Source: an uncultured delta proteobacterium (GTDB lineage: Bacteria > Desulfobacterota > Binatia > UBA9968). From it: a stretch of 64,000 nucleotides of DNA. Below are positions 5,846-38,512 of this stretch, in pieces; positions within the stretch are counted from its first letter, which is position 1, and every line of letters starts with the position of its first letter. The stretch spans positions 32,001 through 96,000 of the forward strand of contig CAVYTU010000018.1 in NCBI GenBank assembly GCA_963771465.1, written 5' to 3'. A program made the position numbers and the translations under genes. The notes beneath the pieces are model-generated. The model searched no databases, was not told where the DNA came from, and saw nothing but the letters and a program-made list of their open reading frames with translations.

Positions 5846-5944
5846 TCCGCCCGGTCTCCTCGAGTCAAGGTCAGGCACGGGGCGGAGTGAGCTAGCTCGG
5901 GTTTGAATCCACGGAGCCTAAAGATTTTTCAACGAGGAGGAGAC

Positions 5945-6205: not shown

Positions 6206-6333
6206 CGTTAGTTCTGTAGGGGACGGCGCTCGGTGCGGTGTGTGCGGATGCTTTTACATCTTGATGAGTCAAATCGACCGAGGGAGACACCGAAGGTGGC
6301 CGTCTGTCTCACGAAGCAATAAGAAGTTTGTTT

Positions 6334-6736
6334 CTAACGCCCGAGCACTTCAACAGTTCCTTTGCCTTCGCGGCGATTGATGCTCTTGTAATTGAAATCG
6401 ATTCGCTTGATGGTTCGACGTTCGCCGGGGAGATCGATAATACGGCTGGCGGATTTTTCAGTGAATTTATGCCGTAATTTGGGTGTGAAGGTTGTATCGT
6501 TGCCAAAGGTCACTGACCATATTAGAGACTTCGATGGGCGCATTCTTGGCCCTAATCTGAAGCTGTTTAAACCGGCCCTCGCTACGGCCCACATCGATCT
6601 GGTCGTGATCAGCTTTGAAATCCACCTCACGTTGACCTAGAAGTTCCCAACGACCCGGCGACTGAGCGGCCTCAACCATACAGGCCGTTAATAGAATAAG
6701 AGTAACTAGCGTTAGTCCACTAATAATAGTTTTCAT
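6334..6736 (-). pseudogene. Frameshifted secreted DUF2541/YaaI-like beta-sandwich protein
   Basis: Signal peptide plus WELLGQREVDFKADHDQIDVG..EGRFKQL in one frame continues as VTFGN..SRIIDLPGERRTIKRIDFNY in another; one extra base at about 6514 (ATG GTC A GTG ACC). Confidence 0.75.
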
Positions 6737-7424
6737 GTTCTCCCTCTTTCCTGGGTTGTGCATGTCTCGAATGTTTAACTTCCTTTGAAATGCCTTGTAT
6801 AGACACATGCTCTTCGATGCACATCGTGCACTGAACCGGGGACGATTACCGACCAATACTGGACGGTCTCAAAAAGAATTAGCTGATTTCAGACAAGCAT
6901 ACCGGCATCTGCAAGAAAGAATTTCGCATCGTCAGTCCTTCCGATCGGGTGTCAGGGAAGCGCCAATGGCAGCGGACCTTGCCATCACAACTCGGGTTGA
7001 TGCGATGAATGAAAATTTCTCGTAGAGCTTTGCGGCCGTCCCTTTATACGACGAGCCGATTGCTTGAATCCCTCCGTGGCTGTGTCACTTTCTGGCATTC
7101 CCGGGCGGCTGACATTCGAATCCCTCGCGCAGCATCCGCCGGAGGTTCGGACGCGCCTCGCGCCGCGAACCTCGAGTCGAGCAGAGAGACGGCGAAAATG
7201 CCCTGTCATCGCCAGGGACTCCTAGACTGGGCAATTGCGGTCTGCCAGCAATTTTGTCAATCGTGACGAAATTGACGCAGTGGCAAAAGTATGGCTGGAA
7301 TCGTTGATAACGTTTACCCCGTGACGACGTTTCTTGGAGCTCATGCTCCGAATCATCCCTTTCGGAAATTTTGCAACGGACCGGCGCGTGGCGATATTGT
7401 GCCACTACTAACGCCTTAACTTTC

Positions 7425-7439
7425 TGGCACAGCGGTTGC
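7425..7439 (+). promoter_or_regulatory. Sigma-54 (-24/-12) promoter of the NRPS-PKS operon
   Basis: TGGCACAGCGGTTGC matches TGGCAC-N5-TTGC exactly, about 60 nt upstream of the ATG at 7501. Confidence 0.8.
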
Positions 7440-7500
7440 CCTTTGCAACTATCCACTAGGTTTCGACGACCACGACTAGGGCCGAAACCGAACGGACATT

Positions 7501-10500
7501 ATGGAAAAGGCGACGTGTAACACTATCCAGTGCGACGAATTGCTTGAAGCTAAAGCAGCGGTCGCCGAGAACTCGCTTGAAACGACGATCCTCGCGTCCG
7601 GTCGAGAACGGCGGGTCACCGACGCGGAGACCTTCGGTTCGTCGTGTTCGGCAAATCCCCAGACGAGCGCGCGAGTCGAATCCTACGGCCTGTCTCCAAT
7701 CCAAAAAGGGATGCTGTTTCATCATCTCGATGCGCGCGATTCAGGCGTCGACGTCGAGCAAGTCATCTGTGCTCTCGATGAAGCGCTACACAAAGAAGCG
7801 TTTGGCAGCGCTTGGCAAGGCGTAATCAATCGCCATGCGATTCTGCGGACGTGCTTTCGCTGGCAAGCTGGCGAAGCCCAGCAAGACGTTCACGATAGTG
7901 CCACGATTGAGTTGGAAGAAATTGACTGGTTAGGAGTGCGGTCGGAGGAACAGGATGAGCGTTGGTCTCGATTGCTCGTAACTGATCGACGGCGCGGCTT
8001 CGACTTGTCCGTAATGCCGTTGATGCGCCTCACACTCATCGCGCTGGCGCCAAATCGCTTTCGAGTACTCTGGACGTTTCATCACATACTGCTTGATGGT
8101 CGCTCTTTCCCGATCATTCTCCGCGAAGTCTTCGATGCCTATTCGGCCATTCGTGAGGGCAAACGGATCTCACTCTCTGAACCGAAGCCCTATCGCGAAT
8201 ACATCGACTGGCTAAGTCAACAAGACTTTGCGCGCTCGGAGGAATATTGGCGCGAAGCATTAAGAGGGTTTCGCACGCCTGTCGAGATCAGTTTGCCGAA
8301 CACACCAGAGGACCCGGCCGAAATTAGAGGGGCAAAGGACTTCCGTGAGCTGCGCTTTTCGCGCGCGTTAACGGATAAACTGAGAGCTTTCGCCAAAAAA
8401 CATCAACTCACGCTAAACACGCTCCTCCAGGGTGCCTGGGCTTTGCTGCTGCATCATTACAGCGGCGAAGAGGATATCGTTTTTGGCGCTACTCGAGCGT
8501 GTCGTCGTTCTGCTCTCGAAGGCGCCGACGACAGGGTCGGCCTATTTATCAATACTCTCCCGATGCGGGTTTGCGTGAGTTCTGACGGAATGCTTGCCGA
8601 TTTGTTTCACGCGTTACGTGAACAACAAACCTCTATGCGGGATTACGAGCATACGCCTTTGTCCCAGGTCCAGCGTTGGAGCGAGGTGCCACGCGGAAGA
8701 CAGTTGTTTGAGAGCATCATCGTATTCGAAAACTATCATCTGGATACGTTGTTGCGGGCCCAGGGCGGCGAATGGCTGAACCGGCATTTCGACTATTTCG
8801 GACAGACCAACTATCCGTTGACGGTGATCGCTTACGCCGATCCTGAATTTTTGCTGCGCATCGAATACGATTGCAGGCGTTTCAACGGCGGTTCGATTAC
8901 CAGAATGGCCGGTCATTTAGCTAACCTACTGGAAGGGTTGTGCGGCGAAGGCATGCAGCGCGTTCACGACGTGCCGCTGGCAACGCGTGAAGAACAAGAG
9001 CAGTTGCTCGAAGCTCCGATGAGTGATTCGATTAATGCCGCGAGCGATACGTGTCTGCACCAACTTTTCGAAGCGCAAGTCGAGAAGACGCCGCATGCGG
9101 TAGCAGTCGTGTGCCAAGGGAAATCCCTCACGTATGGGGAGTTGAACCGAGAGGCGGAGAAGATCGCTTATCGGCTGCGACGATCGGGCGTGGGGCCGGA
9201 GGTTCTCGTCGGACTGTGCGTTGATCGCTCCGTGGAGCTGGTGATCGGTATTGTCGGTATCCTCAAAGCCGGCGGCGCGTATCTGCCGCTCGATCCGAGT
9301 TACCCTAAAGAGCGGCTTGCGTTCATGCTCGACGACGCCAGTGTTTCGGTCCTGCTCACGCAAGCCCATCTGACCGGTTGTTTACCCGATCATCAGGCCG
9401 CCGTCATCCATTTTGATCATGACGACGAAACAACTTGCCCCGAGCCATTATCGGCGGAAACCGAACTTGCCGGCGTAAACCCCGACAATCTTGCCTACGT
9501 GATCTACACTTCGGGTTCCACGGGCAAGCCCAAGGGCGTGCTGATTACCCACCGCAACGTCGCGCGCCTGTTCCCAGCGACTGCGCCTTGGTTTGGATTT
9601 GACCCTAGCGACGTCTGGACGCTGTTCCACTCCTACGCGTTCGATTTTTCCGTCTGGGAGATGTGGGGTGCGCTATTGCACGGCGGACGATTGGTCATCG
9701 TGCCCCATGACGTGAGCCGTTCGCCGGAAGAGTTCGCCGCTCTCATCGCAAGAGAGCAGGTAACCGTTCTTAACCAGACGCCTTCAGCCTTCCGTCAACT
9801 GTTGCCGTACCTGGCCGCCTCCATTGAGCCCGACGCATTATCCCTGCGCTACGTGATTTTCGGCGGCGAAGCGTTGGATGTCAAAACGTTAAAGCCTTGG
9901 TTTGACCGTTATGGTGAAAGAACGCCACGGCTCGTCAACATGTATGGGATCACCGAAACCACCGTGCATGTTACTTACCGACCGATCACTCGAGCCGATC
10001 TGGATGGCCACGTTGGCAGCGTGATCGGCAGCCCGATACCGGATCTGGGGCTTTATCTACTCAATTCACATCGCCAGCCTGTTCCCGTCGGCGTTGCCGG
10101 CGAGATTTACGTCGGCGGAGCCGGAGTTGCGCGCGGCTACCTTCAGCGACCGGAACTGACGGCAGAGCGATTTATCGTCGATCCATTCAGCCGTGATGCG
10201 CAGGCTAGGCTTTATCGAACCGGTGATCGCGCTCGGCGATTGCCCAACGGCGATCTCGAATATCTTGGCAGAATCGATCAGCAAGTTAAAATTCGCGGCT
10301 TTCGCATTGAGCTCGGTGAGATCGAGTCGGAACTTAGTCGGCATCCTGCGGTAAAACAAACTGTCGTCGTTGCCAGGGAAGACCTACCCGGAGACAAGCG
10401 TTTGGTGGCTTACTTTGTCGCGGATCGAGATCTGGACCTGGCCGATCTTCGCGCCGGTCTCTGCGCTCAGCTTCCGGCGCACATGGTGCCCGCCGCCTTT

Positions 10501-13500
10501 GTAAGAATGGCGACTTTGCCGCTCACGAGCAACGGTAAAATCGATCGCGCCGCCCTGCCAAAACCGGATCGAGGTCGGTGCGAGCTTGGCCGGCGCCGCG
10601 CCGCACCTCGGTCCATCGAGGAAGAAAAGCTCTGGCAAATCTGGAGCGGGGTTCTCGGCATTGACGACCTTGGAATCGAGGACAACTTCTTCGAGCTCGG
10701 CGGCGATTCGATCTTGGCCATCCAAGTGATCAGTAAGGCTCGACAGATGGGATTGCAACTTGCGCCCAAAGATTTATTTCAGCATCCAACGATTGCCGAT
10801 TTGGCTGCCGTGCCGGCTACAAGCTCGCCAACGAAAGCCAACGAAGGTGTTACCGTCGGACGAGTTGATCTCACACCGATTCAGCGCTGGTTCTTTGAGC
10901 AGAATCTCGCGGAAATGCATCACTGGAATCAGGCCTTCCTGTTTGAAACCGTGCAACCGTTGGCTGCCGACGTTTTAGAGGATGCGCTGAATGAAGTCGT
11001 GCGCCACCACGACGTATTTCGTCTCGGCTTCACGCGCTGCGGGACGACTTGGGAACAAGCCTATGGGGACGAACAACGGCCGTTTTCCCTTTTGCGTATC
11101 GACCTGTCGATGGTCGCTGAGTCCGAGCAGGAAAACGAGATCGAATCGAGCGCTGCCAAACTTCAGGGATCTCTAGATCTTGCGTCGGGCAAGCTTGTCC
11201 GCGCCGCCTACTTCGATCTCGGCGAACATCGCTCTCCAAGGCTACTATGGATCGTGCATCATCTGATCGTCGACGGCGTCTCGTGGCGCATTCTGCTTGA
11301 GGATCTCGAAACCGCGTACGTGAAATTCCTTGCTAAGCAGCCGGTCTTGTTGCCGGCCAGAACGAGCTCCTACCAGACCTGGGCTGCGACGTTGAACAAA
11401 TACGCAGAGAGGCCTGAGGCGCAGGACGAGCTCAATTACTGGAGCCGGGTACTGGACGGTCCGACGACGGAATTGCCGTGCGATTCGGCGGCGGATTCGA
11501 TGAATTTAGAAAACCGCGCCGAAACCGTTACGGTGCGGCTCAGCCGCGCGGAAACGCGCGCGCTCCTTCAGCAGGTTCCGGCTGCCCAACATGCAGAAAT
11601 CAACGATATTTTGTTGGCCGCGCTTGCCGACTGTTTGAAAACCTGGACGAGAGCCGATTCGTTGCTGGTGGATTTAGAAGGGCATGGTCGAACTGAGATC
11701 GCTGAAAATATCGACGTATCCCGTACCGTCGGTTGGTTTACGACTATTCATCCGCTGCGACTCGATCTGTGTCGGGGCGCGACGCTGGCCGAGAGGGTCA
11801 AAACTACCAGAGACCGCCTTCGTGCTGTTCCCGATAAGGGTTTAGGTTTCGGTATTCTGCGCTACGGAATTGCCAACCCGCAAGCGCGCGCCGCGCTCGC
11901 TGCGTTAGCTCAGCCGGAGATTTCGTTCAATTACCTCGGTCAATTCGACCAAGTGGTCGCCGGTTCTTCGTTGTTTCGGTTCGCCAAAGAATCCTGCGGT
12001 CCTTGGCATAGCCCTTTGGCGCAGCGACGCTATCTTCTGGAAATACTTTCGCTGGTTGCCAACGGCTGCTTCGAAGTCCGGTGGATATTCAACTCCAATC
12101 GACACCGACGAACTACCATCGAAGCCCTTGCGCAAGGATATCTGACGGCGCTGCGTTCGCTGATCAGCGATCGTGCCACGGTTCATCCGGTCGAGGTCGT
12201 TCCAGCCGACTTCCCGCTCGCGCTATTAGATCAGCCAACGCTCGATCGCGTGGCGCGCGATTATCCCAATCTCGAGGATGTCTACCCGCTGTCCTCGATG
12301 CAAAAACTATTTCTCTCGATGGATGCGGTGGGCTCGAAACTAGGACTCGAACAATGGCATTACCAACTGTGCGGCCGGCTCAACATTGACGCTTTCAAAT
12401 GCGCGTGGCAGCGAGTGATTCAGCGTCACCCGATTTTGCGCAGCGCATTTCTCGCGGATGGATTGAGCGAACCGTTGCAGGTGGTGTCACGCCACGTCGA
12501 GCTGTCGTGGGATAACCTCGATTGGCGAACACAACCCGCCGAGGAACAGAAACTGCGCTGGCAAAGCTTGCTCCAGTCTGACCGCCATCGCGGCTTCGAC
12601 CTGCACCGAGCGCCGCTGCTGCGCCTCATACTTATCCGGACTACAGACGACATCTATGATTTCCTTTGGACCACCCATCATATGCTGATCGATGGCTGGT
12701 CATGGCCGGTGCTCTTCAGCGAGCTGGCGCAATTCTACGAAGAGGCTTGCGTCGGGCGGGAAGCGGAGATCGAACCACCTTGCCCGTACCGTAATTACAT
12801 CGCTTGGTTGGGACAGTGCGACGCCAAAAAGGCCGAAGCGTTTTGGCGCGGCGAGCTCAAAGGCATCAATGCTCCGACCCGTATCGGCCTCGATGGTCGG
12901 CGCGATGAATTATCGTCCCGCGCAGACGAGTTTGGCGATGCGAGCATCCATTTGTCGAGCGAAACCACTTTGGCACTGCAGACGCTTGGCCGCTGCGAAC
13001 ACTTAACTCTCAACACCTTGATGCAAGGCGCTTGGGCCTTGCTTCTCAGCCGATATAGCGGACAGCGGGATATTCTTTTCGGCGCTGCTTGTTCCGGTCG
13101 CTCGGCCGAAATTACGGGAATCCACGCCATGGTCGGCCCGTGCGTCAACGACCTCCCGGTCCGAGTGCAAATTGTGCCGCGTTCGACGCTGGGCGGTTGG
13201 TTGAGAAATTTTCAGGCAAGACAATTCGCCGCCAGCGAATTCCAATACAGCTCGGTAATCGAAGTTCATGGGTGGAGCGAAGTTCCGATGCGTCAGCAGC
13301 TGTTCGAGAGTTTGCTCGTGTTTCAAAACTATGCGACGGGTAGCGCCTGCCAACAGCTCGGCCCCGAGATCCAAATCCGCATGGTAGCGGCTCCGGAAAC
13401 GACAAACTATCCGTTGACGTTGACAATCGTGCCCGGAAACCAATTGGGCGTGAAAATTCTTTACCGGGCGGACCGATTCTCCAGCGTGTCTATTCGATCC

Positions 13501-13989
13501 GTTGTGCAAGATCTCCAACGCTTGATCGAAGCGATGGTTCGTAACCCGCAACGGACGACTGCCGAAATTCTCGCCGACTTGCCACCGCTCCAGCACCGAG
13601 GGCCAGAGGAGCTTGCCGCGGCCACGAACATTCATACCGCCGTCCGTATGCTGAGCTCGGCCGGCCCGGCGCCGCAAACGAATTCAGAAAAAATCGTATC
13701 GGCCATTTGGCGTGGTCTCTTCGAGGTGCCTCAGGTCAATCTTGACAGCAATTTTTTTGACCTGGGCGGTCATTCCTTGCTGCTCGTCGAAATGCACAAA
13801 CAACTGGAAAATTCACTCGGTCGCCGCTTGCCGATTGTACAATTATTTCAGCATGCGACGGTGCGCTCGTTGGCTCGCTACCTGACTGCCGAGTCGCCGC
13901 GGAAAACGAATCTCGAGGAGTACCGCAATCGTGCACAACGCCAGCAACGCGCCTTGCCCCAGCGGTCGCGTGCGGGACGGAAAAACTGA
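7501..13989 (+). CDS. Non-ribosomal peptide synthetase C-A-T-E-C-T
   Basis: C HHILLDG; A YVIYTSGSTGKPKG / YGITETT / YRTGD / NGKIDR with pocket DFWNIGMVHK read by eye (Thr code); T LGGDSI; E HHLIVDGVSW, EGHGR, RTVGWFT, FNYLGQFD; second C HHMLIDG; terminal T LGGHSL. Confidence 0.97.
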   Translation: MEKATCNTIQCDELLEAKAAVAENSLETTILASGRERRVTDAETFGSSCSANPQTSARVESYGLSPIQKGMLFHHLDARDSGVDVEQVICALDEALHKEAFGSAWQGVINRHAILRTCFRWQAGEAQQDVHDSATIELEEIDWLGVRSEEQDERWSRLLVTDRRRGFDLSVMPLMRLTLIALAPNRFRVLWTFHHILLDGRSFPIILREVFDAYSAIREGKRISLSEPKPYREYIDWLSQQDFARSEEYWREALRGFRTPVEISLPNTPEDPAEIRGAKDFRELRFSRALTDKLRAFAKKHQLTLNTLLQGAWALLLHHYSGEEDIVFGATRACRRSALEGADDRVGLFINTLPMRVCVSSDGMLADLFHALREQQTSMRDYEHTPLSQVQRWSEVPRGRQLFESIIVFENYHLDTLLRAQGGEWLNRHFDYFGQTNYPLTVIAYADPEFLLRIEYDCRRFNGGSITRMAGHLANLLEGLCGEGMQRVHDVPLATREEQEQLLEAPMSDSINAASDTCLHQLFEAQVEKTPHAVAVVCQGKSLTYGELNREAEKIAYRLRRSGVGPEVLVGLCVDRSVELVIGIVGILKAGGAYLPLDPSYPKERLAFMLDDASVSVLLTQAHLTGCLPDHQAAVIHFDHDDETTCPEPLSAETELAGVNPDNLAYVIYTSGSTGKPKGVLITHRNVARLFPATAPWFGFDPSDVWTLFHSYAFDFSVWEMWGALLHGGRLVIVPHDVSRSPEEFAALIAREQVTVLNQTPSAFRQLLPYLAASIEPDALSLRYVIFGGEALDVKTLKPWFDRYGERTPRLVNMYGITETTVHVTYRPITRADLDGHVGSVIGSPIPDLGLYLLNSHRQPVPVGVAGEIYVGGAGVARGYLQRPELTAERFIVDPFSRDAQARLYRTGDRARRLPNGDLEYLGRIDQQVKIRGFRIELGEIESELSRHPAVKQTVVVAREDLPGDKRLVAYFVADRDLDLADLRAGLCAQLPAHMVPAAFVRMATLPLTSNGKIDRAALPKPDRGRCELGRRRAAPRSIEEEKLWQIWSGVLGIDDLGIEDNFFELGGDSILAIQVISKARQMGLQLAPKDLFQHPTIADLAAVPATSSPTKANEGVTVGRVDLTPIQRWFFEQNLAEMHHWNQAFLFETVQPLAADVLEDALNEVVRHHDVFRLGFTRCGTTWEQAYGDEQRPFSLLRIDLSMVAESEQENEIESSAAKLQGSLDLASGKLVRAAYFDLGEHRSPRLLWIVHHLIVDGVSWRILLEDLETAYVKFLAKQPVLLPARTSSYQTWAATLNKYAERPEAQDELNYWSRVLDGPTTELPCDSAADSMNLENRAETVTVRLSRAETRALLQQVPAAQHAEINDILLAALADCLKTWTRADSLLVDLEGHGRTEIAENIDVSRTVGWFTTIHPLRLDLCRGATLAERVKTTRDRLRAVPDKGLGFGILRYGIANPQARAALAALAQPEISFNYLGQFDQVVAGSSLFRFAKESCGPWHSPLAQRRYLLEILSLVANGCFEVRWIFNSNRHRRTTIEALAQGYLTALRSLISDRATVHPVEVVPADFPLALLDQPTLDRVARDYPNLEDVYPLSSMQKLFLSMDAVGSKLGLEQWHYQLCGRLNIDAFKCAWQRVIQRHPILRSAFLADGLSEPLQVVSRHVELSWDNLDWRTQPAEEQKLRWQSLLQSDRHRGFDLHRAPLLRLILIRTTDDIYDFLWTTHHMLIDGWSWPVLFSELAQFYEEACVGREAEIEPPCPYRNYIAWLGQCDAKKAEAFWRGELKGINAPTRIGLDGRRDELSSRADEFGDASIHLSSETTLALQTLGRCEHLTLNTLMQGAWALLLSRYSGQRDILFGAACSGRSAEITGIHAMVGPCVNDLPVRVQIVPRSTLGGWLRNFQARQFAASEFQYSSVIEVHGWSEVPMRQQLFESLLVFQNYATGSACQQLGPEIQIRMVAAPETTNYPLTLTIVPGNQLGVKILYRADRFSSVSIRSVVQDLQRLIEAMVRNPQRTTAEILADLPPLQHRGPEELAAATNIHTAVRMLSSAGPAPQTNSEKIVSAIWRGLFEVPQVNLDSNFFDLGGHSLLLVEMHKQLENSLGRRLPIVQLFQHATVRSLARYLTAESPRKTNLEEYRNRAQRQQRALPQRSRAGRKN

Positions 13990-13991
13990 TC

Positions 13992-16900
13992 ATGTCCCAT
14001 AGCGAGCACTACGATCCAAAGGCCGGCATCGCCATCGTCGGCATGGCCGGACGTTTTCCCGGCGCGAACAACATCGACGAGTTTTGGCGAAATCTCGTCG
14101 CTGGGGTGGAGAGCATCTCGCATTTTACCGAAGCCGAGTTGGAGTTCTCGCCGCTGGAAGATGCCGGCCTGCGCAGGGATTCAAATTATGTGAAGGCGCG
14201 CGGCACGATCGACAATGCCGACTTATTCGACGCCGCGTTTTTCGGTATCAATCCGCGCGAGGCGGAAACGATGGATCCGCAACAACGAGTGTTTCTCGAG
14301 ACCGCTTGGGTGGCGCTCGAACACGCCGGTTACGACGCACGAATGTTTAAAGGCCTGATCGGCATTTTCGCGGGCATGAGCAACAACAGTTACTTTCCAT
14401 TACTGACGGCGGCGGGCGGAGTCGATAGAGCGGCATCCCTGCAAGCCATGCTAGGAAACGAAAAAGATTATCTTACGACGCGAGTGTCCTATCATCTTAA
14501 CCTGCGCGGACCGAGCATTAGCGTGCAAACCGCATGCTCGAGCTCGCTGGTGGCGGTTTACCAGGCGTTTCAGAGCTTGCTCGGCTATCAGTGCGATATG
14601 GCGCTCGCCGGCGGCGTCTCCGTTGTCGTGCCGCAGAAACGCGGTTATCTCCACTATGAAGGCGCAATCACATCTCCGGACGGCCATTGTCGGGCCTTTG
14701 ATGCCGCGGCGCAGGGAACGGTGTTTAGCAACGGCGCCGGCATTGTCGTCCTGAAGCGCCTGCAGGACGCGCTTGACGATGGCGATCAAATCTTCGCGGT
14801 AATCAAGGGCGCGGCGGTAAACAACGATGGCTCCGATCGAGTCAGTTTCGCTGCGCCCAACGTGAACGGCCAAAGCGAAGCGATCGCTATGGCTCAAGCC
14901 TTGGCTGGTTTCGACCCGGAAACGATTTCCTACATTGAAGCTCATGGCACGGCAACGCCCCTCGGCGATCCGATTGAAATAGCCGGACTGACGCAGGCGT
15001 TTCGTCTCGGCACGGACGGCAACGGATTTTGCGCCATCGGGTCGGTGAAGACCAATATCGGACATCTCGACGTCGCCGCCGGTGTGGCGGGATTGATCAA
15101 GACCGCGCTGGCGCTCAAGCACAAGAAGATTCCGGCAAGCCTGCACTACAAAAGTCCCAATCCGAAAATTGACTTCGCCAACACGCCCTTTTACGTCAAT
15201 GCCGAGTTGAGCGATTGGCCGGCAGGAACAACGCCCCGCCGGGCCGGCGTCAGCTCATTCGGCTCCGGCGGCACCAACGCCCATGTGCTTCTCGAAGAAG
15301 CGCCGGCGCTGGAACCTTCCGCCGCGGCGCGATCGGCGGAGTTGATCGTGCTTTCTGCGAAGACCGCAGAAGCGCTCGATCGGACAACGAAAGATTTGGC
15401 AGAACACTTGGCGAACCATCCCGAGCTCAACTTGGGTGATGTCGCGCACACGCTGCACTGCGGTCGGTCGGCGTTTGCCCATCGACGTATGGTCGTCTGT
15501 CGCGATCTTGCTGACGGCGCGGATGCTCTTCGCAGCATGAACCCCAAGCGCGTCGTCACGAACCATAACGAACACAAAGCGCCGTCCATCGCTTTCATGT
15601 TTCCCGGCCAAGGCGCTCAGTACGTCAACATGGGCCGCGGACTCTATGAAGAAAGTTCCTTTTTCCGCAACCAAGTGGCCGAGTGCGCCGAATCGCTCGC
15701 CGCCAAGTTAGGGCTGGACATCCGGACGGTTTTGTATCCAGCAGCCGCTCACCGAGAGCGCGCGGAAGAGCTCCTGTCGCAAGCTTCAATCACACAGCCG
15801 GCGCTGTTCGTCGTCGAGTATGCGCTCGCCAGGTTGTGGATCGAGTGGGGTATTGAGCCGAGTTTCGTGGTTGGCCACAGCTTGGGCGAGTACGTCGCGG
15901 CGTGCCTAGCTGGGGTGTTCTCGCGCGACGATGCATTGAACTTGGTCGTTGAGCGCGCTCGTCTTGTGCAGTCGCTTCCCAGCGGCTCCATGCTCGCGAT
16001 CCGTTTATCCGCTTCTGAAGTTGAACGGAGCTTGAGCAAAGAGCTTTCGATCGCAGCGATCAACAGCCCGACGCTGACCGTCGTTTCCGGGCTCGTCGAA
16101 GCCATTCAAACGTTAGAGAATGAGCTAACAACCGAGAAGATTCCCTGCCGCCGTCTCGTGACATCCCACGCGTTTCACTCGGCGATGCTCGATCCCATCC
16201 TGCCGCCTTTTCGAGAAATCGTGCGCGGCATTCGCCTTGGCGAGCCGCGCTTACCCTGGGTTTCCACGCTGACCGGCGCCATCATCACCGTCGCGGAGGC
16301 GATGGATCCGGAATACTGGGTGAGACAGTTGCGCGAGCCGGTTCACTTCGCCGACAGCGTTGGCGTTCTGCTCAAGGATGAAGTCCACGCTTTGCTCGAA
16401 GTAGGGCCGGGTCAAGGGTTGGCCACGCTCGCACGCCAACACCCGAGCAAACGCCCAGACCAAGAAATTTTCCTCTCTTTACTATCCAGTCAGACTGCCG
16501 GCGGGGATTTAGACGGCATGCTCAATTCATTGGGTCGTTTGTGGTTGGCGGGCGCGGAAGTTGATGGGTCGCGGATGGACGATGAAAAACGACGTCTGCG
16601 CGTAGCCTTGCCCAGCTATCCATTCGACCGCAAGCGCTTCTGGCCGTCGGTGCGAAGGCTTGCCGGTGACGAAAAGAATCCGCCGCCGGAAGCGAGGAAT
16701 GGAAAAATTTCATTACCTGTGGTTGCCCCGCCCGCTGCAGCGATGATCGCAGAGCCGAATGATGTAAGCGCGTTTCACGACTTGAACGGGGTAGCGCCGA
16801 CACGCTGTCACCGCGAGGACGTCTTGGAGCGGCTGCAAACGCTTTTTAGCGAGATCTCGGGCATCGCCGCTGAAGATCTGCTGCCACACGCTTCGTTTCT

Positions 16901-19900
16901 GGAACTCGGGCTCGATTCGCTCCTGCTGACGCAAGCAAGCGCTGCGCTACTCAAGCGCTTCGGCGTGAAAGTGTCGTTCCGCCAGCTCCTCGAGGAATTG
17001 TCGAGCTTGGAAACCTTGGCCGACCATCTCGCAGCTTCTATCCCACAAAGCGAGGAAATGCACAAACGCGTCGCTCGGCCACCGGTCTGCAACCAGCGGG
17101 AAATGAACGACCAACCTTCGGTTGTCGGAAGCCCAGCCGTGTTCGGCGCGCTCCCGGCGGATCTGTTTAGCTTGGCACAGATAGCCAACTCTGACGGCAC
17201 GGCGCTCGAGCGAATCTTCGCCAGGCAATTGGATCTGATGCAGCAACAACTCGATATGCTAAAGACGAGCGGCGGTGTAAATCCAGGCGGCAATATAGCT
17301 GTCAACTCTGCGCCGAAAGCTTCGTCGAGCAAGATCGAACCGATTGCGACATTAGCCGCGGCAGGGGAAGTCGGAAGGAGACCTATCGGGGAAAAAGGTT
17401 TTGGACCGTACAAACCGATCCAGACGGGCAAACAGCATCAACTGACCGAGCGCCAGCAGCAATATCTAAACGACTTCATCGCACGCTACACGACGCTCAC
17501 GCGCAAATCGAAGATACTTACCGCTGAGCACCGGGCTCATCTCGCCGATCCGCGCACGGTTGCGGGATTCCGCTCGACGTGGAAGGAGCTTATCTATCCG
17601 GTCGTGACCGAACGTTCCGCCGGCTCGAAACTTTGGGACGTGGACGGCAACGAATACATCGATTTGACCAATGGTTTCGGCGCGATTCTCTTTGGTCACG
17701 GGCCGGAGTTCGTGACGACGGCGCTTCAAGAGCAAATCAAAAAGGGTATGGAGATCGGTCCGCAATCGCCGCTCGCGGGTGAAGTTGCGGCGCTACTCTG
17801 TGAGCTCACCGGCATGGAGCGGGCAGCGTTCTGCAATACCGGCTCGGAGGCCGTGCTGGCGGCGCTACGTATTGCTCGCACGGTAACCGGGCGCGATAAG
17901 ATCGCCATGTTCACCGGTGATTACCATGGCATTTTTGATGAGGTGGTCGTGCGCGCGGTCGGCGGCACAAAGTCGCGTCCAGCGGCGCCCGGCATACCGT
18001 CGAGCATGGCCGAAAACGTCATCGTGCTCGAGTACGGTGATCCGGCGTCCTTGCCAATTCTACGCGACCACGCTCATGAGTTGGCGGCGGTCATCGTCGA
18101 GCCGGTGCAAAGTCGCCGACTGGACCTGCAACCGAAGGAATTCTTGCGGGAGCTTCGTGAGCTCACGGCACGAGCGGGAACAGCGCTGATTTTCGACGAA
18201 ATCGTCACCGGTTTTCGCTCGCATCTCGGTGGCGCGCAGGCGATCTTCGACGTGCGCGCGGATATCGCGACCTACGGCAAGGTCATCGGCGGCGGACTGC
18301 CGATCGGTATCGTCGCCGGCAAAGCGGAGTTCATGGACGCCCTCGACGGCGGCCCATGGATGTTTGGCGACGACTCGGCGCCCGAAGTCGGAATGACGTT
18401 TTTTGCCGGAACGTTTATGCGTCACCCGCTGGCACTCGCCGCGACCAAAGCGTGCCTGACGCACCTCAAAGAGAAGAGCCCGGAGCTGCAGGAACGATTA
18501 AGTCACCGAACCAAAAACTTGGTCGACGGCCTGCTCGCACACGCCAAGGAACTTCAGATACCGGTACGCATCACGCACTTTAGCTCTTTGTTCGCCTTCG
18601 AATTTCCACCCGAGCTCCCTTTGGCGAGTCTCTTTTATCCGATGATGCGCGCGCGCGGGATTCACATCTGGGAAGGCCGCCTCGGCATACTCACTACGGC
18701 GCATACGGATCAGGATATCGATCGCATCCTCGTCGCTTTCAGAGATTGCCTGGCGGAAATGCAGCACGCCGAATTCTTGCCGATAGCTGCAGTCGGGGAG
18801 AACAGCGATGATCGAGCGGACGCGGACGAGGATGGCGCCGATTCGGTCATCGCGGCCACCGACGGCCAGCGCGAAATTTGGCTCGCCGCGCAAATGAGCG
18901 ACGATGCGTCTCGGGCGTTTACCGACTGCTTGACCGTGGAGTTGCGTGGACCGCTGCAAATCGTCGCGCTGAACCGCGCCATTCAGGAGCTAGTAACGCG
19001 CCATGATTCGTTGCGGATGACCTTCAGCGACGACGGCGAATCCCTGTGGGTGACGCCGCAAGTCGAGATCGATCTACCCGTAATCGATCTCGGCCCCGTC
19101 AACCTGGAAGAACGATCGCAGCGATTGGCGCAGATCGTAACCGAGCAGCGCACGAAAACATTCGACTTGAGCCGAGAATTCATGTTGCGCAGCGTCGTCT
19201 TACGAATGGCGGCCGACCATCACGTATTGGTTATGACGACTCACCATGCCGCCGTCGATGGTTGGTCTTTCGGCGTGTTGTTGGCGGAGCTTGGCAGACT
19301 TTATTCGGCAAAGTGTCGCAGTGAGGTATCCGCGCTACCGTCGGCTCCGCAATTCGCCACGTATGCCCGCCGCGAGATCGCAGCACGGCGATCTGAAGAG
19401 TGGAACGCAACGGAAAAATTTTGGCTCGATCAATTCACGACTCTGCCGCCGCCGCTGGAGCTGCCACTCGATCGACCACGGGCCAATGTGAAGAGTTACC
19501 TGGCCCGGCGACGCCACGTCGTTTTGCCGAGCGCGCGCGGCCGGGAGCTACGCCGGTTCGCGGCGCAACATGGTGCCACACTGTTCTCGACTTTGCTGGC
19601 CGCCTTCAACGTTCTGCTCCACCGTCTGAGCGGTCAGGATGACATCGTTGTCGGAATCTCCGTGGCAGGACAGTTGGCCGGCGATACGCCGGACCTGGTC
19701 GGCCACTGCGTGAATTTCCTGCCGTTGCGCCATCGAATCGATGCCAACCGGAGCTTTACAACCTATCTTTCGGCGGTAAAGAGTTTGGTTTTAGACGCCC
19801 ACGATCATCAAAGCTATACCTACGGCAGTTTGTTGCGGAAGCTCAAGCTACCGCGCGACGGCGGCCGCGCGCCGCTGATGTCGGCGAGCTTCAATTTGGA

Positions 19901-22900
19901 CCGGGCGATCGAAAAACCATTCCTTGACGGTCTCGATGTCGAGGTTGAAATTCAAGAGCGGTCGGCGATCAATTTCGACTGCAGCTTGAATATTGTCGAT
20001 GATGGCGAAGATCTGTCGATCAATTGGCAGTACAACGCCGATCTTTTCGATGATGAAACGATCGAGCGCTGGCTGGATCATTATCAAACTCTATTGGCGG
20101 AAATCACCGCTGATCCGAAACGCTCATTGGCGGACCTGCCGTTGTTGACAGACGCCGAACAACACCGGCTGCTCGTGGAGTGGAACGACACCCACCGCGA
20201 ATATCCTGAAGGCCGGTGCCTCCACCAGCTATTTGAGGAGCAGGTGACACGCACACCCGAAGTGGTTGCTGTCGTTATTGACGACCAACAGCTTACCTAC
20301 GGAGAGCTCAATAGACAGGCCAACCAGCTCGCCCATCACCTACGCAAGCTAGGGGTAGGACGGGATATATTAGTCGGCCTTTGCTTAGAGCGATCCTTAG
20401 ATCTGGTCGTAGCTTGTTTGGCAATACTCAAAGCAGGTGGAGCCTACGTTCCCTTGGACTCGGAGTATCCAAAGGATCGACTGGCTTACATGATAAAGGA
20501 TACCCGAGCGCCAGTGTTGCTAACCCAACAGCACCTGGTAGAAAAACTTCCCGTGCAGAGTTCTCGGATCCTGTGTATCGACTCGGATTGTAAAGCCGTC
20601 GGTAAGGAAAGCGGGGATAACCCTGTTAACTTTTCCACACCCGAGAGCCTCGCCTACGTGATCTACACCTCTGGATCTACCGGGAGTCCGAAGGGAGTGA
20701 TGGTCTCCCACAGCGCTATCGTCAATTTCATGCTGTGGACGCAGGAGACATTTCCCCTGAACGAAACCGACCGCGTGCTGCAAAAGACACCGATCAGCTT
20801 CGACGCATCGGTGTGGGAATGCTACGCGCCACTTCTTGTCGGTGCCCGACTCGTGATGGCCCGCCCTGGTGGAAATCAGGACGGTGGTTATTTGGCCAAA
20901 CTCATTGGCGAACAAAAAATCACCGCATTGAAAGTTGTTCCCTCGCTGCTGCGTATGCTTCTCGATGAGCCGGCGCTATCCGATGCCACGAGCCTACGGC
21001 GAGTTTTCTGCGGAGGAGAGGCGTTAACGATAGAGCTTCAGCAAAAGTTTCATGCGCGGCTAACGGCCGAATTATGGAACCTTTATGGTCCCACCGAGAC
21101 GACGGTTGACGTCGTGTTTTACGAGTGTAAGCGCGACGCCCGTAGCGATCTAGTGCCCATTGGACGTCCGATAGCGAACACAGAGGTTTATATCCTGGAC
21201 TCAGAGCTAAGGCCTACTGCTGTTGGGCTTGCGGGGGAGCTCTATGTTGGAGGAACCAGCTTGGCGCGTGGCTATCTCAATCGCCCGGATTTAACCGCAG
21301 AGAAATTCATTCGCAATCCTTTCAGTGACGACCCTGGTGCGCGGCTGTATAGGACCGGAGATTTGGTCCGCTATCGATCCGATGGGAACATCGTGTATCT
21401 TGGTCGTATCGACAATCAAATCAAGCTGCGTGGCTTCCGCATCGAGCCGGGCGAGATCGAAGCGATTCTTAGTGAGCATCAGGCAGTGCGCGAGGCGATC
21501 GTCATCGCGCGTGAGGATACGGCTGGGAATAAGCGTCTGGTTGCTTATCTCGTCATGAAGGTTGGCTCTACGATCGCCGAGAACGATCTCCGGGTCCATC
21601 TGAAAAAGAAATTGCCTCAGTACATGATGCCCGCTGCATTCGTTGTGCTCCCACGTCTTCCACTTACCGCAAACGGAAAGTTAGACCGCAGAGCCTTGCC
21701 GGCGCCCGACAATCCGACTCTGTCGGCAAATACGCCATGTGTCGCGCCACGCAACGATGTCGAGCGCCTCATCGAGCGCATCTGGTGCGACGTGCTCGGG
21801 ATCCAGCGGCTCGGCATTGAAGAAAATTTCTTTGACATCGGCGGGCATTCTATTCTCGCAACTCGAGCCATGGCTCGACTGCGGCAAGAGTGCCAAATAA
21901 ATCTGCCGCTCAGAGCGCTGTTTGAATGTCCGACCATCGCCGAACTTGGTGCCAGACTCTTAGCGGAACTTGGAGCGAATGATGCGGCGGCCGCCAAAGC
22001 AGACCAGATGTACTCCCATCTATTCGAACTTAAATCCGGCGATCCGAAGAAGCCTGTGTTTTTTCTGCCCGGCGGTATCGGTGGCGACGAAGAATTCCTG
22101 GTGTATGCCAGGTTCCTGCATCATGTCGATACGGATCACAAATTTTACGGGATGCGGTCGCGGAGCGCGAACGGAATCCTTAAGTGTCAGTCGAGCGTCG
22201 CCCAGATGGCCGCAGACTACATTCGCGAGATTCAAAAGCTTCAACCTCGCGGGCCGTACTCCATCGTCGGGAATTGCATCGGTGGCATCGTCGCGTACGA
22301 GATCGCCCGTCAGCTGGAGGCGCAAGGACAGAAAATCGCTTTGCTAGCTCTGATGGATACCAATAGACCGTCGTTAAGTCTCTATCTAAGTTACCGCTGG
22401 AAGCGCATCGGCGAAATTAAAATGCTGATCGCCCCTTGGCATCGCTTCAAGAATTCTTATTATCTGGCACGGGCCCGCTATCATGGGCGCAAGATATGTG
22501 GCCTGCGTTGGCACGACCTGTTGCCGTATTCATGCTCACGGCTGGCAACGGTGATCCAAGCGGTGCAACAGCCGCATGCGCAAAAAAAGGCCGAGCCGTA
22601 TCGTGATATGGATCTTCCCACTAAATGCAGACCTGCAATTCAGGATACCTATGAACGAGCGCTGCGTCGTTATCGGCCTGGACCCTTCCATGGACGAATG
22701 ACGCTGATCGTGAACCAGGAAGCTCACCGCCGAAATCCGGACCTCGGCTGGTCGAATCTCGTTTCGGAAGGAATCGAAATTTACAAAGCGCGCGGTGATC
22801 ACGAGAGCTATATCCGAGAACACGTACAGGCGGTGGCCGAACAACTAGAATCAATTCTGGCAAAGTCGGAAATAGACCCTCCGGGCCGCGTCGGCAATAA

Positions 22901-22979
22901 GTCAATTCCTCAGGACGCGATACGGAAAGGGTTGGGCTGGAGTCAATTTGATCCGGCGACGAGTTGGTTTATGCTTTAG
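13992..22979 (+). CDS. Hybrid PKS-NRPS KS-AT-ACP-aminotransferase-C-A-T-TE
   Basis: KS TACSSS/HGTAT/NIGHLD; AT GHSLGE plus HAFH (malonyl); ACP LGLDSL; class III aminotransferase IFDEIVTGFR/TYGKVIGGG; C HHAAVDG; A YTSGSTGSPKG; T IGGHSI; TE GNCIGG..D..GDH; starts 2 nt after the NRPS stop. Confidence 0.97.
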   Translation: MSHSEHYDPKAGIAIVGMAGRFPGANNIDEFWRNLVAGVESISHFTEAELEFSPLEDAGLRRDSNYVKARGTIDNADLFDAAFFGINPREAETMDPQQRVFLETAWVALEHAGYDARMFKGLIGIFAGMSNNSYFPLLTAAGGVDRAASLQAMLGNEKDYLTTRVSYHLNLRGPSISVQTACSSSLVAVYQAFQSLLGYQCDMALAGGVSVVVPQKRGYLHYEGAITSPDGHCRAFDAAAQGTVFSNGAGIVVLKRLQDALDDGDQIFAVIKGAAVNNDGSDRVSFAAPNVNGQSEAIAMAQALAGFDPETISYIEAHGTATPLGDPIEIAGLTQAFRLGTDGNGFCAIGSVKTNIGHLDVAAGVAGLIKTALALKHKKIPASLHYKSPNPKIDFANTPFYVNAELSDWPAGTTPRRAGVSSFGSGGTNAHVLLEEAPALEPSAAARSAELIVLSAKTAEALDRTTKDLAEHLANHPELNLGDVAHTLHCGRSAFAHRRMVVCRDLADGADALRSMNPKRVVTNHNEHKAPSIAFMFPGQGAQYVNMGRGLYEESSFFRNQVAECAESLAAKLGLDIRTVLYPAAAHRERAEELLSQASITQPALFVVEYALARLWIEWGIEPSFVVGHSLGEYVAACLAGVFSRDDALNLVVERARLVQSLPSGSMLAIRLSASEVERSLSKELSIAAINSPTLTVVSGLVEAIQTLENELTTEKIPCRRLVTSHAFHSAMLDPILPPFREIVRGIRLGEPRLPWVSTLTGAIITVAEAMDPEYWVRQLREPVHFADSVGVLLKDEVHALLEVGPGQGLATLARQHPSKRPDQEIFLSLLSSQTAGGDLDGMLNSLGRLWLAGAEVDGSRMDDEKRRLRVALPSYPFDRKRFWPSVRRLAGDEKNPPPEARNGKISLPVVAPPAAAMIAEPNDVSAFHDLNGVAPTRCHREDVLERLQTLFSEISGIAAEDLLPHASFLELGLDSLLLTQASAALLKRFGVKVSFRQLLEELSSLETLADHLAASIPQSEEMHKRVARPPVCNQREMNDQPSVVGSPAVFGALPADLFSLAQIANSDGTALERIFARQLDLMQQQLDMLKTSGGVNPGGNIAVNSAPKASSSKIEPIATLAAAGEVGRRPIGEKGFGPYKPIQTGKQHQLTERQQQYLNDFIARYTTLTRKSKILTAEHRAHLADPRTVAGFRSTWKELIYPVVTERSAGSKLWDVDGNEYIDLTNGFGAILFGHGPEFVTTALQEQIKKGMEIGPQSPLAGEVAALLCELTGMERAAFCNTGSEAVLAALRIARTVTGRDKIAMFTGDYHGIFDEVVVRAVGGTKSRPAAPGIPSSMAENVIVLEYGDPASLPILRDHAHELAAVIVEPVQSRRLDLQPKEFLRELRELTARAGTALIFDEIVTGFRSHLGGAQAIFDVRADIATYGKVIGGGLPIGIVAGKAEFMDALDGGPWMFGDDSAPEVGMTFFAGTFMRHPLALAATKACLTHLKEKSPELQERLSHRTKNLVDGLLAHAKELQIPVRITHFSSLFAFEFPPELPLASLFYPMMRARGIHIWEGRLGILTTAHTDQDIDRILVAFRDCLAEMQHAEFLPIAAVGENSDDRADADEDGADSVIAATDGQREIWLAAQMSDDASRAFTDCLTVELRGPLQIVALNRAIQELVTRHDSLRMTFSDDGESLWVTPQVEIDLPVIDLGPVNLEERSQRLAQIVTEQRTKTFDLSREFMLRSVVLRMAADHHVLVMTTHHAAVDGWSFGVLLAELGRLYSAKCRSEVSALPSAPQFATYARREIAARRSEEWNATEKFWLDQFTTLPPPLELPLDRPRANVKSYLARRRHVVLPSARGRELRRFAAQHGATLFSTLLAAFNVLLHRLSGQDDIVVGISVAGQLAGDTPDLVGHCVNFLPLRHRIDANRSFTTYLSAVKSLVLDAHDHQSYTYGSLLRKLKLPRDGGRAPLMSASFNLDRAIEKPFLDGLDVEVEIQERSAINFDCSLNIVDDGEDLSINWQYNADLFDDETIERWLDHYQTLLAEITADPKRSLADLPLLTDAEQHRLLVEWNDTHREYPEGRCLHQLFEEQVTRTPEVVAVVIDDQQLTYGELNRQANQLAHHLRKLGVGRDILVGLCLERSLDLVVACLAILKAGGAYVPLDSEYPKDRLAYMIKDTRAPVLLTQQHLVEKLPVQSSRILCIDSDCKAVGKESGDNPVNFSTPESLAYVIYTSGSTGSPKGVMVSHSAIVNFMLWTQETFPLNETDRVLQKTPISFDASVWECYAPLLVGARLVMARPGGNQDGGYLAKLIGEQKITALKVVPSLLRMLLDEPALSDATSLRRVFCGGEALTIELQQKFHARLTAELWNLYGPTETTVDVVFYECKRDARSDLVPIGRPIANTEVYILDSELRPTAVGLAGELYVGGTSLARGYLNRPDLTAEKFIRNPFSDDPGARLYRTGDLVRYRSDGNIVYLGRIDNQIKLRGFRIEPGEIEAILSEHQAVREAIVIAREDTAGNKRLVAYLVMKVGSTIAENDLRVHLKKKLPQYMMPAAFVVLPRLPLTANGKLDRRALPAPDNPTLSANTPCVAPRNDVERLIERIWCDVLGIQRLGIEENFFDIGGHSILATRAMARLRQECQINLPLRALFECPTIAELGARLLAELGANDAAAAKADQMYSHLFELKSGDPKKPVFFLPGGIGGDEEFLVYARFLHHVDTDHKFYGMRSRSANGILKCQSSVAQMAADYIREIQKLQPRGPYSIVGNCIGGIVAYEIARQLEAQGQKIALLALMDTNRPSLSLYLSYRWKRIGEIKMLIAPWHRFKNSYYLARARYHGRKICGLRWHDLLPYSCSRLATVIQAVQQPHAQKKAEPYRDMDLPTKCRPAIQDTYERALRRYRPGPFHGRMTLIVNQEAHRRNPDLGWSNLVSEGIEIYKARGDHESYIREHVQAVAEQLESILAKSEIDPPGRVGNKSIPQDAIRKGLGWSQFDPATSWFML

Positions 22980-22997: not shown

Positions 22998-23081
22998 TGG
23001 CAGCGGGGAGGGACTTCAACCCTCACAGAATTACCTACCCGATTTTGAGTCCGTGCGCGTCTGTCATTCCACCACTCCGGC
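22998..23081 (-). pseudogene. Degenerate tRNA-Leu(CAA) pseudogene
   Basis: Minus strand GCCGGAGTGGTGGAATGACAGACGCG..ACTCAAAATC..GAGGGTTGAAGTCCCTC..CCA has a class II Leu layout, but D-loop GG>GA, T-loop TTC>TTG, and mismatched anticodon and acceptor stems. Confidence 0.8.
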
Positions 23082-23240
23082 ATGGAATTAGGGGTAGCCA
23101 ACCATTAATTATGGCATTCGAGTCATCCCCGTCGCGGCGTCCCCGGCCAGATCGTAAACCCCTCCTGAGGGATGGGAGTTTGTTGCTGGATAGTGCTATT
23201 GATAGGTGAGTTCAGAAACGTATCGCATGGAGGAACTAAA

Positions 23241-23666: not shown

Positions 23667-23809
23667 TGTTTCTCCCTCGGGTTTGACCCCGTCGCCGAGA
23701 AATTTGGTGCGGTAGCAGGACAAAAGCAAGGAGCAGAAAGCAAAGCGCGATACCCGGGACTTCTATACGCTATGCTCCTGCTCCTTGGGGATCACAATCC
23801 TGTTACTTG

Positions 23810-24061
23810 TTAGTCGGCATCGCGATCGCTATCTCCACTGCGCCGTGCGTAGCGATTGTCGTAGTAGCGACCATAACGCCAATCGTAACGGCGATCATCG
23901 CGCCGATCGTAATCACGATCATAAGCTCGATCATAGCGGTCCCCACGCCGACCGTAGTCGTAACGATCATAGCGGTCGTAGTAGTAACAGCCGGCGACGA
24001 ACGATGTGAGCGACGCTAAAAGCGCCATCAGGGCAATTGATTGAATATTGTAACGTTTCAT
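23810..24061 (-). CDS. Small lipoprotein with low-complexity Asp/Arg/Tyr tail
   Basis: AGGAGGTG RBS, lipobox VAGC, then YYYDRYDRYDYGRRGDRYDRAYDRDYDRRDDRRYD. Confidence 0.75.
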   Translation of the reverse strand: MKRYNIQSIALMALLASLTSFVAGCYYYDRYDRYDYGRRGDRYDRAYDRDYDRRDDRRYDWRYGRYYDNRYARRSGDSDRDAD

Positions 24062-24147
24062 AAAAACACCTCCTGGCATATGAATTGTTATCTGTCCTGA
24101 GGTTAGGCAGGGCTCATCCCTGAAAGCTTTGGCTCACCGCCGCGCCG

Positions 24148-36083: not shown

Positions 36084-36116
36084 CTCCGCGGCCGGCTACT
36101 CTCGGAGATAATTTAC

Positions 36117-38509: not shown

Positions 38510-38512
38510 ACA

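Follow-up and report, generated by a model that had tools for sequence, protein, structure and literature searches.

The two-gene locus and its domains

A stretch of 64,000 nucleotides of contig CAVYTU010000018.1 from an uncultured Binatia bacterium (assembly GCA_963771465.1), called the window below, carries two adjoining giant open reading frames (ORFs) that encode a nonribosomal peptide synthetase (NRPS) and a hybrid of a polyketide synthase (PKS) with an NRPS. Both genes lie on the + strand and are separated by 2 bp. The domain orders C-A-T-E-C-T and KS-AT-ACP-AMT-C-A-T-TE given in the original prediction, which had been made from the DNA letters, were confirmed by Pfam and motif checks, and the catalytic residues were found intact (C, condensation; A, adenylation; T, thiolation; E, epimerisation; KS, ketosynthase; AT, acyltransferase; ACP, acyl carrier protein; AMT, aminotransferase; TE, thioesterase). 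The genes and domains are located as follows:

7501..13989, + strand: ORF1, NRPS of the order C-A-T-E-C-T, 2162 aa (ORF call, Pfam, motifs)
7666..9015, + strand: C1, a DCL-derived condensation domain of the HHxxxDGRS / FGATR clade, predicted chain initiator
9046..10560, + strand: A1, code DFWNIGMVH
10606..10830, + strand: T1, GGDS type (motif)
10876..12255, + strand: epimerisation (E) domain (motifs)
12286..13905, + strand: A-less module, comprising C2 (DCL, family clade) and T2 (GGHS)
13992..22979, + strand: ORF2, hybrid PKS-NRPS of the order KS-AT-ACP-AMT-C-A-T-TE, 2995 aa (ORF call, Pfam, motifs)
14016..17051, + strand: KS-AT-ACP (motifs)
17472..18776, + strand: class III aminotransferase (AMT) domain, MycA-like, Lys1430 (Pfam, solved-structure match)
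18837..21971, + strand: C3-A2-T3, A2 with the Glu/Gln-like code DAWKFGLVD
22032..22871, + strand: thioesterase, Cys2762-Asp2789-His2937, AB3403-like, Asp at position I

Pfam returned three condensation-family, one A and two PP-binding stretches on ORF1, and KS, AT, two PP-binding, Aminotran_3, C, A and TE on ORF2. The ORF1 motifs comprise HHILLDGRS of C1 (at 194), GGDS of T1 (S1070), HHLIVDG, EGHGR and RTVGWFT of the E domain, HHMLIDGWS of C2 (at 1726) and GGHS of T2 (S2092). On ORF2 the KS residues C182/H318/H358, the AT motifs GHSLG and HAFH, S976 of the ACP, K1430 of the AMT, HHAAVDG of C3 and S2620 of T3 were identified. With the KS triad and the lysine for pyridoxal phosphate intact, ORF2 has the KS-AT-ACP-AMT-C-A-T order of iturin/MycA-type hybrids.

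The AT motif HAFH is presumably of the malonyl type, and the A1 code DFWNIGMVH is taken to denote Thr. The A2 code is nearest to DAWQFGLIDK, which is quoted as a Gln code (PMC8313283, excerpt), so the substrate of A2 would be Glu or Gln; the codes thus support the earlier assignment of Thr to A1 and of a Glx-like residue to A2. The proposed beta-amino-ketide logic was borne out as well, the best solved match of the AMT being mycosubtilin MycA (PDB 6KFM, E-value 4e-136). T1 belongs to the GGDS carrier type, described as serving E and DCL domains (PMC10880069, excerpt).

Two separate soil studies have DNA runs that contain the pair and its flanks at ~99 % identity with even depth, small-share runs being left aside; the pair is therefore not an assembly artefact, although one of these runs could be the source sample. 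Its neighbours encode FtsH, a YihY-like membrane protein, small unknown ORFs and an amidohydrolase; as had been claimed, no gene for a phosphopantetheinyl transferase (PPTase), MbtH, a tailoring enzyme or an exporter was found next to it. The host genome (6.9 Mb, 99 % complete) carries two PPTases, both away from the pair, and gave no match to MbtH.

A cross-phylum family and its first condensation domain

A search with the C2-T2 region yielded 37 C-A-T-E-C-T proteins among the top 120 matches, 35 of which have the code DFWNIGMVH. A scan of GTDB genomes found 175 relatives, the best 80 loci being kept, and a metagenome scan with generic patterns gave 79 loci, 69 of them other NRPSs. The E-C-T end with its A-less C-T module was present in 47/80 GTDB and 10/79 metagenome loci, i.e. 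in 57/159, and these 57 are referred to as the family loci. In 55 of them a KS follows the A-less C-T directly, one locus is cut by the contig end and one has no KS. The named carriers belong to Pseudomonadota, Acidobacteriota, Actinomycetota, Gemmatimonadota, Chloroflexota, Planctomycetota and Methylomirabilota, hence to at least seven phyla, and include a cultured strain, Hyphomicrobium sp. GJ21. The family KS domains form one clade in a quick tree (54 rows, SH-aLRT 99), in which the KS of the window is sister to the Terriglobia copies. A1 is of the Thr type in 38/42 loci and the HHxxxDGW motif of C2 is intact in 51/51 scored copies. The A domain after the AMT varies: by its code it is of the Gly type in 13 of 31 cases, of the Thr type in 10, of the Ala type in 3 and of another type in 5.

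The C-T module was found in 2/90 genomes of the host family (the AMT in 5/90) and in 2/251 genomes of the genus Bradyrhizobium with 5 candidates scored per genome; a phylum-wide search gave 1/401, a weak figure since just 3 candidates per genome were scored. A plasmid match (H2) was rejected as a different NRPS.

The neighbourhood of the family loci was compared with that of the window, with the reservation that many of the 57 are truncated. A PPTase gene was seen in 24, a Cupin_8/JmjC protein gene in 23 and a gene for a Cys-rich protein in 18, so that the description of a 'minimal' two-gene line holds for the copy in the window but not for the family, whose loci often carry these three genes. 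No peptidase is conserved among the neighbours. The Cys-rich protein (315-340 aa; L017:4419-5408 and 17 other family loci) has 5729 homologues at E<=1e-20 and no match in Pfam or NCBIfam, and was not found in the window's genome. Its model (pLDDT 85.5) consists of two Cys-rich SH3-like halves and matches only small SH3-like barrels (best Z 7.6 over 70 residues), which point to no function.

Taken together with the product described in the next section, the reading of the two genes as an intact member of a widespread, apparently uncharacterised hybrid NRPS-PKS family that lost its usual neighbours is given a probability of about 0.5. Such a conserved and apparently unstudied cluster family in at least seven phyla would be directly testable through the cultured and non-pathogenic carrier Hyphomicrobium sp. 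GJ21.

The start of the line is unusual. C1 and C2 both have DCL domains as best matches (McyB-C1, E-value 7e-107 for C1 and 8e-96 for C2). C1 was considered as a lipo-initiating starter (Cs) domain, which was rejected: its top PDB matches are McyB-C1, PvdL, BacC, TycB and SrfA-C, no starter-type chain occurs among the ten best (E-values 1e-107 to 1e-57), and it is nested among DCL-like domains in the condensation-domain tree. C1 has HHxxxDGRS and FGATR where the others have DGWS and FGxTVSGR. The Arg of the DGR motif occurs in 41/41 intact family C1 domains compared with 1/129 other DCL-like domains, a count that leaves out four frameshifted family copies. DGR was seen in 2/739 HHxxxDG motifs of 142 generic NRPS proteins, a control drawn from a search of 1.84 billion proteins ranked by multi-domain score, which missed the family. 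In the tree, the 30 DGR-bearing domains all fall into a single clade (FastTree local support 100), and every one of them stands first in its own ORF. DGRS domains are likewise found at the start of single-module C-A-T-TE genes (L194, L195), where the 20 kb read contained no further NRPS. The HHxxxDGRS clade is thus an apparently undescribed, candidate initiator subclass that almost always starts a line.

In relatives of the host, DGRS domains were seen to start many unrelated NRPSs (L193-L195, L197, L198, L200, L201, L203, L205, L190), among them single-module genes of the order C-A(Gly-type)-T-TE(Cys).

A canonical DCL domain receives a D-aminoacyl donor from an upstream E domain, which is lacking for C1. 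The E domain of ORF1 is the only one found in the host, the KS of ORF2 is the only type I KS found there, and all five condensation-family domains found in the genome of Hyphomicrobium GJ21 lie in the family cluster. Because the sole host E is in ORF1 and the GJ21 condensation domains are all in the cluster, C1 would work without a D-peptidyl donor, and the same counts bear out that the pair is not a fragment of a larger cluster elsewhere, the outcome that had been named as fatal to a two-gene line. We infer that C1 is a DCL-derived initiator acylating the first residue; alternatively, its role may be purely structural.

The opposite view is that a larger line exists, of which the pair forms the downstream part, and that C1 accepts either an acyl unit or a D-peptidyl chain supplied by a different host NRPS or a stand-alone A-T didomain. 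This view would agree with the DCL-like character of C1 and with the many A-T didomains of the host that lack the usual Asp and could be acyl donors in trans. It is nevertheless very improbable, given the absence of another E domain from the host and of another condensation domain from those found in Hyphomicrobium GJ21, and an NRPS carrier gene upstream of ORF1 in a single family locus among those read (L159).

Orphan A-T didomains without the amino-acid-binding Asp were recorded in the host away from C domains at C18:12135-14114 (C18 being the contig of the window), C12:196199-198148 and C13:327537-329579. At one actinomycete locus an FkbH-like gene (L046:3016-5022) lies directly upstream of ORF1, and glyceryl could be the donor for C1 there.

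Predicted product, its precedents and chain release

The product predicted from the domain order is a short N-acyl-D-allo-Thr-[3,4-diamino-5-hydroxyhexanoyl]-Glu/Gln. It shares Thr, the beta-amino ketide and Glx with the (acyl)-D-Thr-X-beta-amino ketide-Glx compound proposed earlier; D-Thr has to be replaced by D-allo-Thr, which is what epimerisation of L-Thr at C-alpha yields, X is most likely Thr, and the acyl cap would come through a DCL-derived domain.

Synthesis would begin when C1 caps Thr-T1 with a small acyl group, taken from a thioester outside the line, after which the E domain would turn the capped Thr into D-allo-Thr. A1 would also charge the A-less T2 with L-Thr, and the DCL domain C2 would join both to acyl-D-allo-Thr-L-Thr. 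Malonate would be added by KS-AT and the beta-ketone aminated by the AMT, giving a vicinal diamine beside the Thr hydroxyl, and C3 would attach Glu or Gln. The chain would be released by the Cys thioesterase, for the lone copy in the window most likely as a free or cyclic molecule, and the carriers would be primed in trans by the Sfp-like PPTase of the host. Assembly-line enzymology would gain from each of three features: amination beside an amine that stems from an amino acid, the descent of an initiator clade from DCL domains, and a pair of release systems that can replace each other.

The loading of T2 was approached through related clusters in which the carrier before KS-AT-ACP-AMT has its own A domain. 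In three of them (G008, G049 and G050:C3) the code is DFWNIGMVH, and in a fourth (G050:C17) it is of the Ser type. Since three of these four pre-KS carriers show the Thr code, A1 most likely loads T2 with Thr, by analogy. The repeated use of one Thr module has been proposed for megapolipeptin (PMC11411415, excerpt).

C2 itself has the features of a canonical DCL domain, as it follows T(GGDS)-E, carries HHxxxDGWS and has DCL domains as best matches. It does not qualify as a dehydrating CmodAA domain, its E-values to AmbE and McyA being 1e-22 to 1e-25 against 8e-96 for McyB-C1, while a dehydrating role within the DCL clade is an alternative. The C2-T2 module could accordingly serve as a hand-over or dehydration module that passes a single Thr on from T1 to T2, either as acyl-D-allo-Thr or in the dehydrobutyrine form; the product would then be one residue shorter and might contain an enamide. 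Precedents are NocB C5, a DCL-clade domain that can dehydrate, and the T1 to T2 transfer reported after the dehydrating C domain of AmbE (PMC10880069, excerpt), and T2 does lack an A domain. The hand-over is considered improbable: C2 is far closer to ordinary DCL domains than to AmbE or McyA and has no HHH motif as in NocB, an intact E domain is kept across the family, and where the pre-KS carrier of a relative has its own A domain, that carrier receives Thr, as judged by code.

Several points weigh against the preferred reading, in which an intact family line joins two Thr residues. The C2 histidines are lost in 2/37 family proteins (P0110 and P0120), so peptide-bond formation by C2 is not universal, and this loss would also suit the hand-over; the charging of T2 by A1 has analogy as its basis. 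Two DGRS domains (L199, L204) are not chain-initial, and no stand-alone ACP was found near the family loci as a donor for C1. Most A-domain codes were interpreted from general code tables, and the KS and condensation-domain trees were built by quick methods with no bootstrap. In RNA runs X15 and X16 the cover, seen as contigs, extends over genes and intergenic flanks alike and so bears on expression in neither direction. Finally, 13 of the 20 listed within-ORF variants (20 of 411 variants) change an amino acid, a near neutral ratio, so selection on the window's copy is possibly weak. Promoter and terminator scans gave hits at chance level only.

The line was compared with known systems. Mycosubtilin MycA and the iturin type, as well as McyE and flavipulchrin Pfl, have the same class III aminotransferase embedded after a malonyl PKS module. 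MycA and McyE use their KS to elongate a fatty or polyketide acyl chain, which becomes a beta-amino fatty acid, and the same route is described for Pfl (PMC12819058, excerpt). The KS of the window, in contrast, would act on a peptide ending in Thr and lead to a vicinal diamine, and the line lacks a fatty-acyl ligase and has two A domains only. The ligase and ACP starter that precede the KS in the iturin type are replaced by the T domain of an NRPS, here as in 55/57 family loci. Colibactin ClbN and amicoumacin-type starters consist of an N-terminal C-A-T-E(-C) which makes an N-acyl-D-amino acid before hybrid modules, and they have a starter-clade C domain, Asn and a dedicated peptidase. The window differs from them by the DCL-derived C1, Thr, an extra T and no conserved neighbour peptidase.

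Megapolipeptin MgpD (C-A-T-E-C-T-TE) shares the C-A-T-E-C-T string, in which the second C domain is again of the DCL type, and one Thr A domain of MgpC is proposed to be used twice, as proposed here for A1 (PMC11411415, excerpt). MgpD is described there as a terminal Val module with proposed amide formation in a large assembly line combining a polyunsaturated fatty acid PKS with NRPSs, unlike the string in the window, which starts the line, activates Thr and feeds KS-AT-ACP-AMT. Carenaemin (Collimonas cpl) is likewise made by an AMT-bearing NRPS-PKS, and its activity depends on a sugar repeat-unit locus with Wzx; it differs in having KS-AT-AMT first and Gln, Ser and Leu-like modules afterwards, in its two unlinked loci and in a product structure that is unsolved according to the excerpt (PMC8313283).

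Because each part has a precedent, the line is a variant of hybrid NRPS-PKS and not a new class. The claim that no characterised cluster has the same domain order was upheld, none being found in the main texts of the open literature (MIBiG lying outside this scope) or in the plasmid search. No matching description of the family, the DGRS clade, a link to exopolysaccharide (EPS), a Binatia cluster or a vicinal-diamine cluster was found in the open literature either, and the excerpts of PMC8776678 and PMC11342130, considered as matches, describe other systems.

The thioesterase was present with its catalytic residues as originally stated; what had been missed is that the nucleophile is Cys2762 (GNCIGG), accompanied by Asp2789 at the usual position (LMDT) and His2937. 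Its best PDB match is AB3403 (E-value 7e-17), and it shares the Cys at the nucleophile elbow with AB3403, ObiF1 and SulM. A beta-lactone or beta-lactam-forming function as in ObiF1 and SulM was rejected: the Asp is at position I, as in AB3403, and the motif is NCI, whereas ObiF1 and SulM have the catalytic Asp at position II and SulM a Gln-Cys-Asn motif, which is lacking here (PMC11298585, excerpt).

A TE was seen in 21/57 family loci, with Cys as nucleophile in 19/21, and a pair of alpha/beta hydrolases in 11/57. The two occur together in 0/57, compared with ~4 expected by chance. The pair, seen in the loci of relatives, resembles the exosortase-A-associated (PEP-CTERM) hydrolases 1 and 2 but is related only, as its scores of 81 and 100 bits fall below the cut-offs of TIGR03100/TIGR03101 (168 and 203). 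Unlike the TE of the window, the stand-alone TEs of the family keep the Cys but not the usual Asp and His; those at L017:19796-20797 and other loci carry a TubC_N docking domain.

Polysaccharide loci and the history of the window's copy

Many relatives lie inside polysaccharide loci, unlike the copy in the window. Polysaccharide genes occurred within ~5-6 kb flanks in 9/40 family loci in comparison to 0/36 non-family NRPS loci, the latter count after four generic ABC ATPase matches had been set aside; as a baseline, the host genome gives 3 % per 6 kb and 11 % per 40 kb. Reading was extended to ~50 kb for 11 loci, and 8 of these are in or beside capsule, EPS, O-antigen or Wzx/Wzc/glycosyltransferase genes, ten of the 11 having been chosen by hand (7 polysaccharide-linked) and the eleventh being linked too. 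The linked loci span Alpha- and Gammaproteobacteria, Actinomycetota, Planctomycetota and Acidobacteriota, and in three of them the TE or JmjC gene is directly followed by Wzx. Three extended loci are not EPS-linked, among them the nearest KS relatives of the window (Terriglobia), and no EPS gene was found on the 194 kb contig C18.

The real job of the family could therefore be glycan decoration, the Cys-TE or the hydrolase pair transferring the peptide-ketide to a capsule or EPS repeat unit before flipping by Wzx, with the copy in the window doing the same in trans with the EPS loci of the host. In the polysaccharide-embedded relatives, such transfer to the sugar unit would be the more likely mode of release. 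Besides the flank enrichment, the extended loci and the position of Wzx, the relation of the hydrolase pair to exosortase-A partners speaks for it, as does a different Thr-to-KS NRPS-PKS in host relatives that also ends in a hydrolase pair and then Wzx (L192, L196), and the need of carenaemin for an AMT-bearing NRPS-PKS together with a Wzy-dependent sugar locus (PMC8313283, excerpt). Against it stand the EPS-free contig of the window and the three unlinked extended loci; moreover, the kin are not independent, 10/11 extended loci were hand-picked and the control loci differ in taxonomy. To our knowledge, no polysaccharide structure has such a substituent. Because of the dependence among kin and the lack of a supporting glycan structure, decoration is regarded as a tentative explanation, and a DGRS-initiated cross-phylum family that grafts a Thr-derived vicinal-diamine peptide onto capsular or exopolysaccharide units via a Cys transacylase or an interchangeable hydrolase pair, with the window as an escaped copy, is equally a doubtful though serious possibility. 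If it were true, megasynthases would be part of cell-envelope glycan synthesis in common soil bacteria, and some 'natural product' clusters counted in soil genomes would be cell-surface modification machines.

The loci of the two host-family genomes mentioned above (L192:376-19999 and L196:2-19998) contain C-A(Thr)-T, KS-AT-T-E and C-A-T; after these come two genes of the radical-SAM/B12 type, then the hydrolase pair and the Wzx flippase.

The history of the copy in the preferred reading, which takes it as an intact line without its usual neighbours, could be followed from a feature that lies 20 bp past the ORF2 stop and had been missed in the original prediction:

22999..23082, - strand: decayed copy of tRNA-Leu(CAA), 86 % identical to the functional copy on contig C15 (BLAST and relaxed ARAGORN)

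Rfam and default ARAGORN gave nothing in this region, the remnant being detected by BLAST and relaxed ARAGORN only, and the relaxed ARAGORN calls on other loci are mostly noise. On C15, the true tRNA-Leu(CAA) of the host lies directly next to the TE gene of another NRPS array; the remnant has the same position relative to the TE of the window. In G008 this slot, bounded by an ECF sigma factor/amidohydrolase pair on one side and by the tRNA on the other, is occupied by a related NRPS-PKS-AMT cluster. The tRNA-Leu(CAA) slot is a tRNA-anchored NRPS hotspot. In the host it holds a multi-gene NRPS array rich in A-T didomains (C15:1084623-1122388; the G008 equivalent is L001/L002). The copy in G027 adjoins an integrase.

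The G+C content at third codon positions is 0.59-0.60 in A2-T3-TE, 0.68-0.71 from KS to C3 and 0.59-0.65 in the ORF1 domains; A2 is 65 % identical to a different module of G008, the first one, and the best match of the TE is the TE on C15. The remnant is likely a trace of relocation from the tRNA-Leu-anchored slot and A2-T3-TE, judged by these sequence features, likely a swapped module. The copy would thus have left the slot, received another A-T-TE at its end and lost the neighbouring genes for JmjC and the PPTase, homologues of which (49 % and 40 % identity, respectively) occur alone elsewhere in the host genome. The former is an orphan Cupin_8/JmjC gene at C19:40223-41122, which could act in trans.

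The same events could mean that the copy is a hitch-hiking, decaying cassette that makes nothing useful any more, as its family neighbours are lost, the tRNA anchor has decayed, the last module is apparently swapped, 13/20 listed variants are non-synonymous and a relative in G049 is frameshifted, possibly by sequencing error. Yet the 15.5 kb are free of stops with all catalytic residues present, no indel listed for four runs breaks the frame inside a domain (7 further indels lie beyond these), most of the listed changes are conservative and the PPTase and the 49 % JmjC homologue persist elsewhere in the genome, and decay is considered unlikely.

The cluster is flanked by two stretches of ~330-340 bp (6344-6670 and 23773-24115) which have second copies on C18, with 74 % identity at C18:161354-161679 and 83 % at C18:25970-26296, and a joint in run X1 skips window positions 6274-6759. 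At 5903-6205 (+), 1.3 kb upstream of the cluster, an ORF of 100 aa weakly matches a phage holin (NF037947, below cut-off). Further away, a response regulator, three histidine kinases and a NosP/FIST-like protein are encoded in one run at 35628-43941 (+), possibly a nitric-oxide sensing module.

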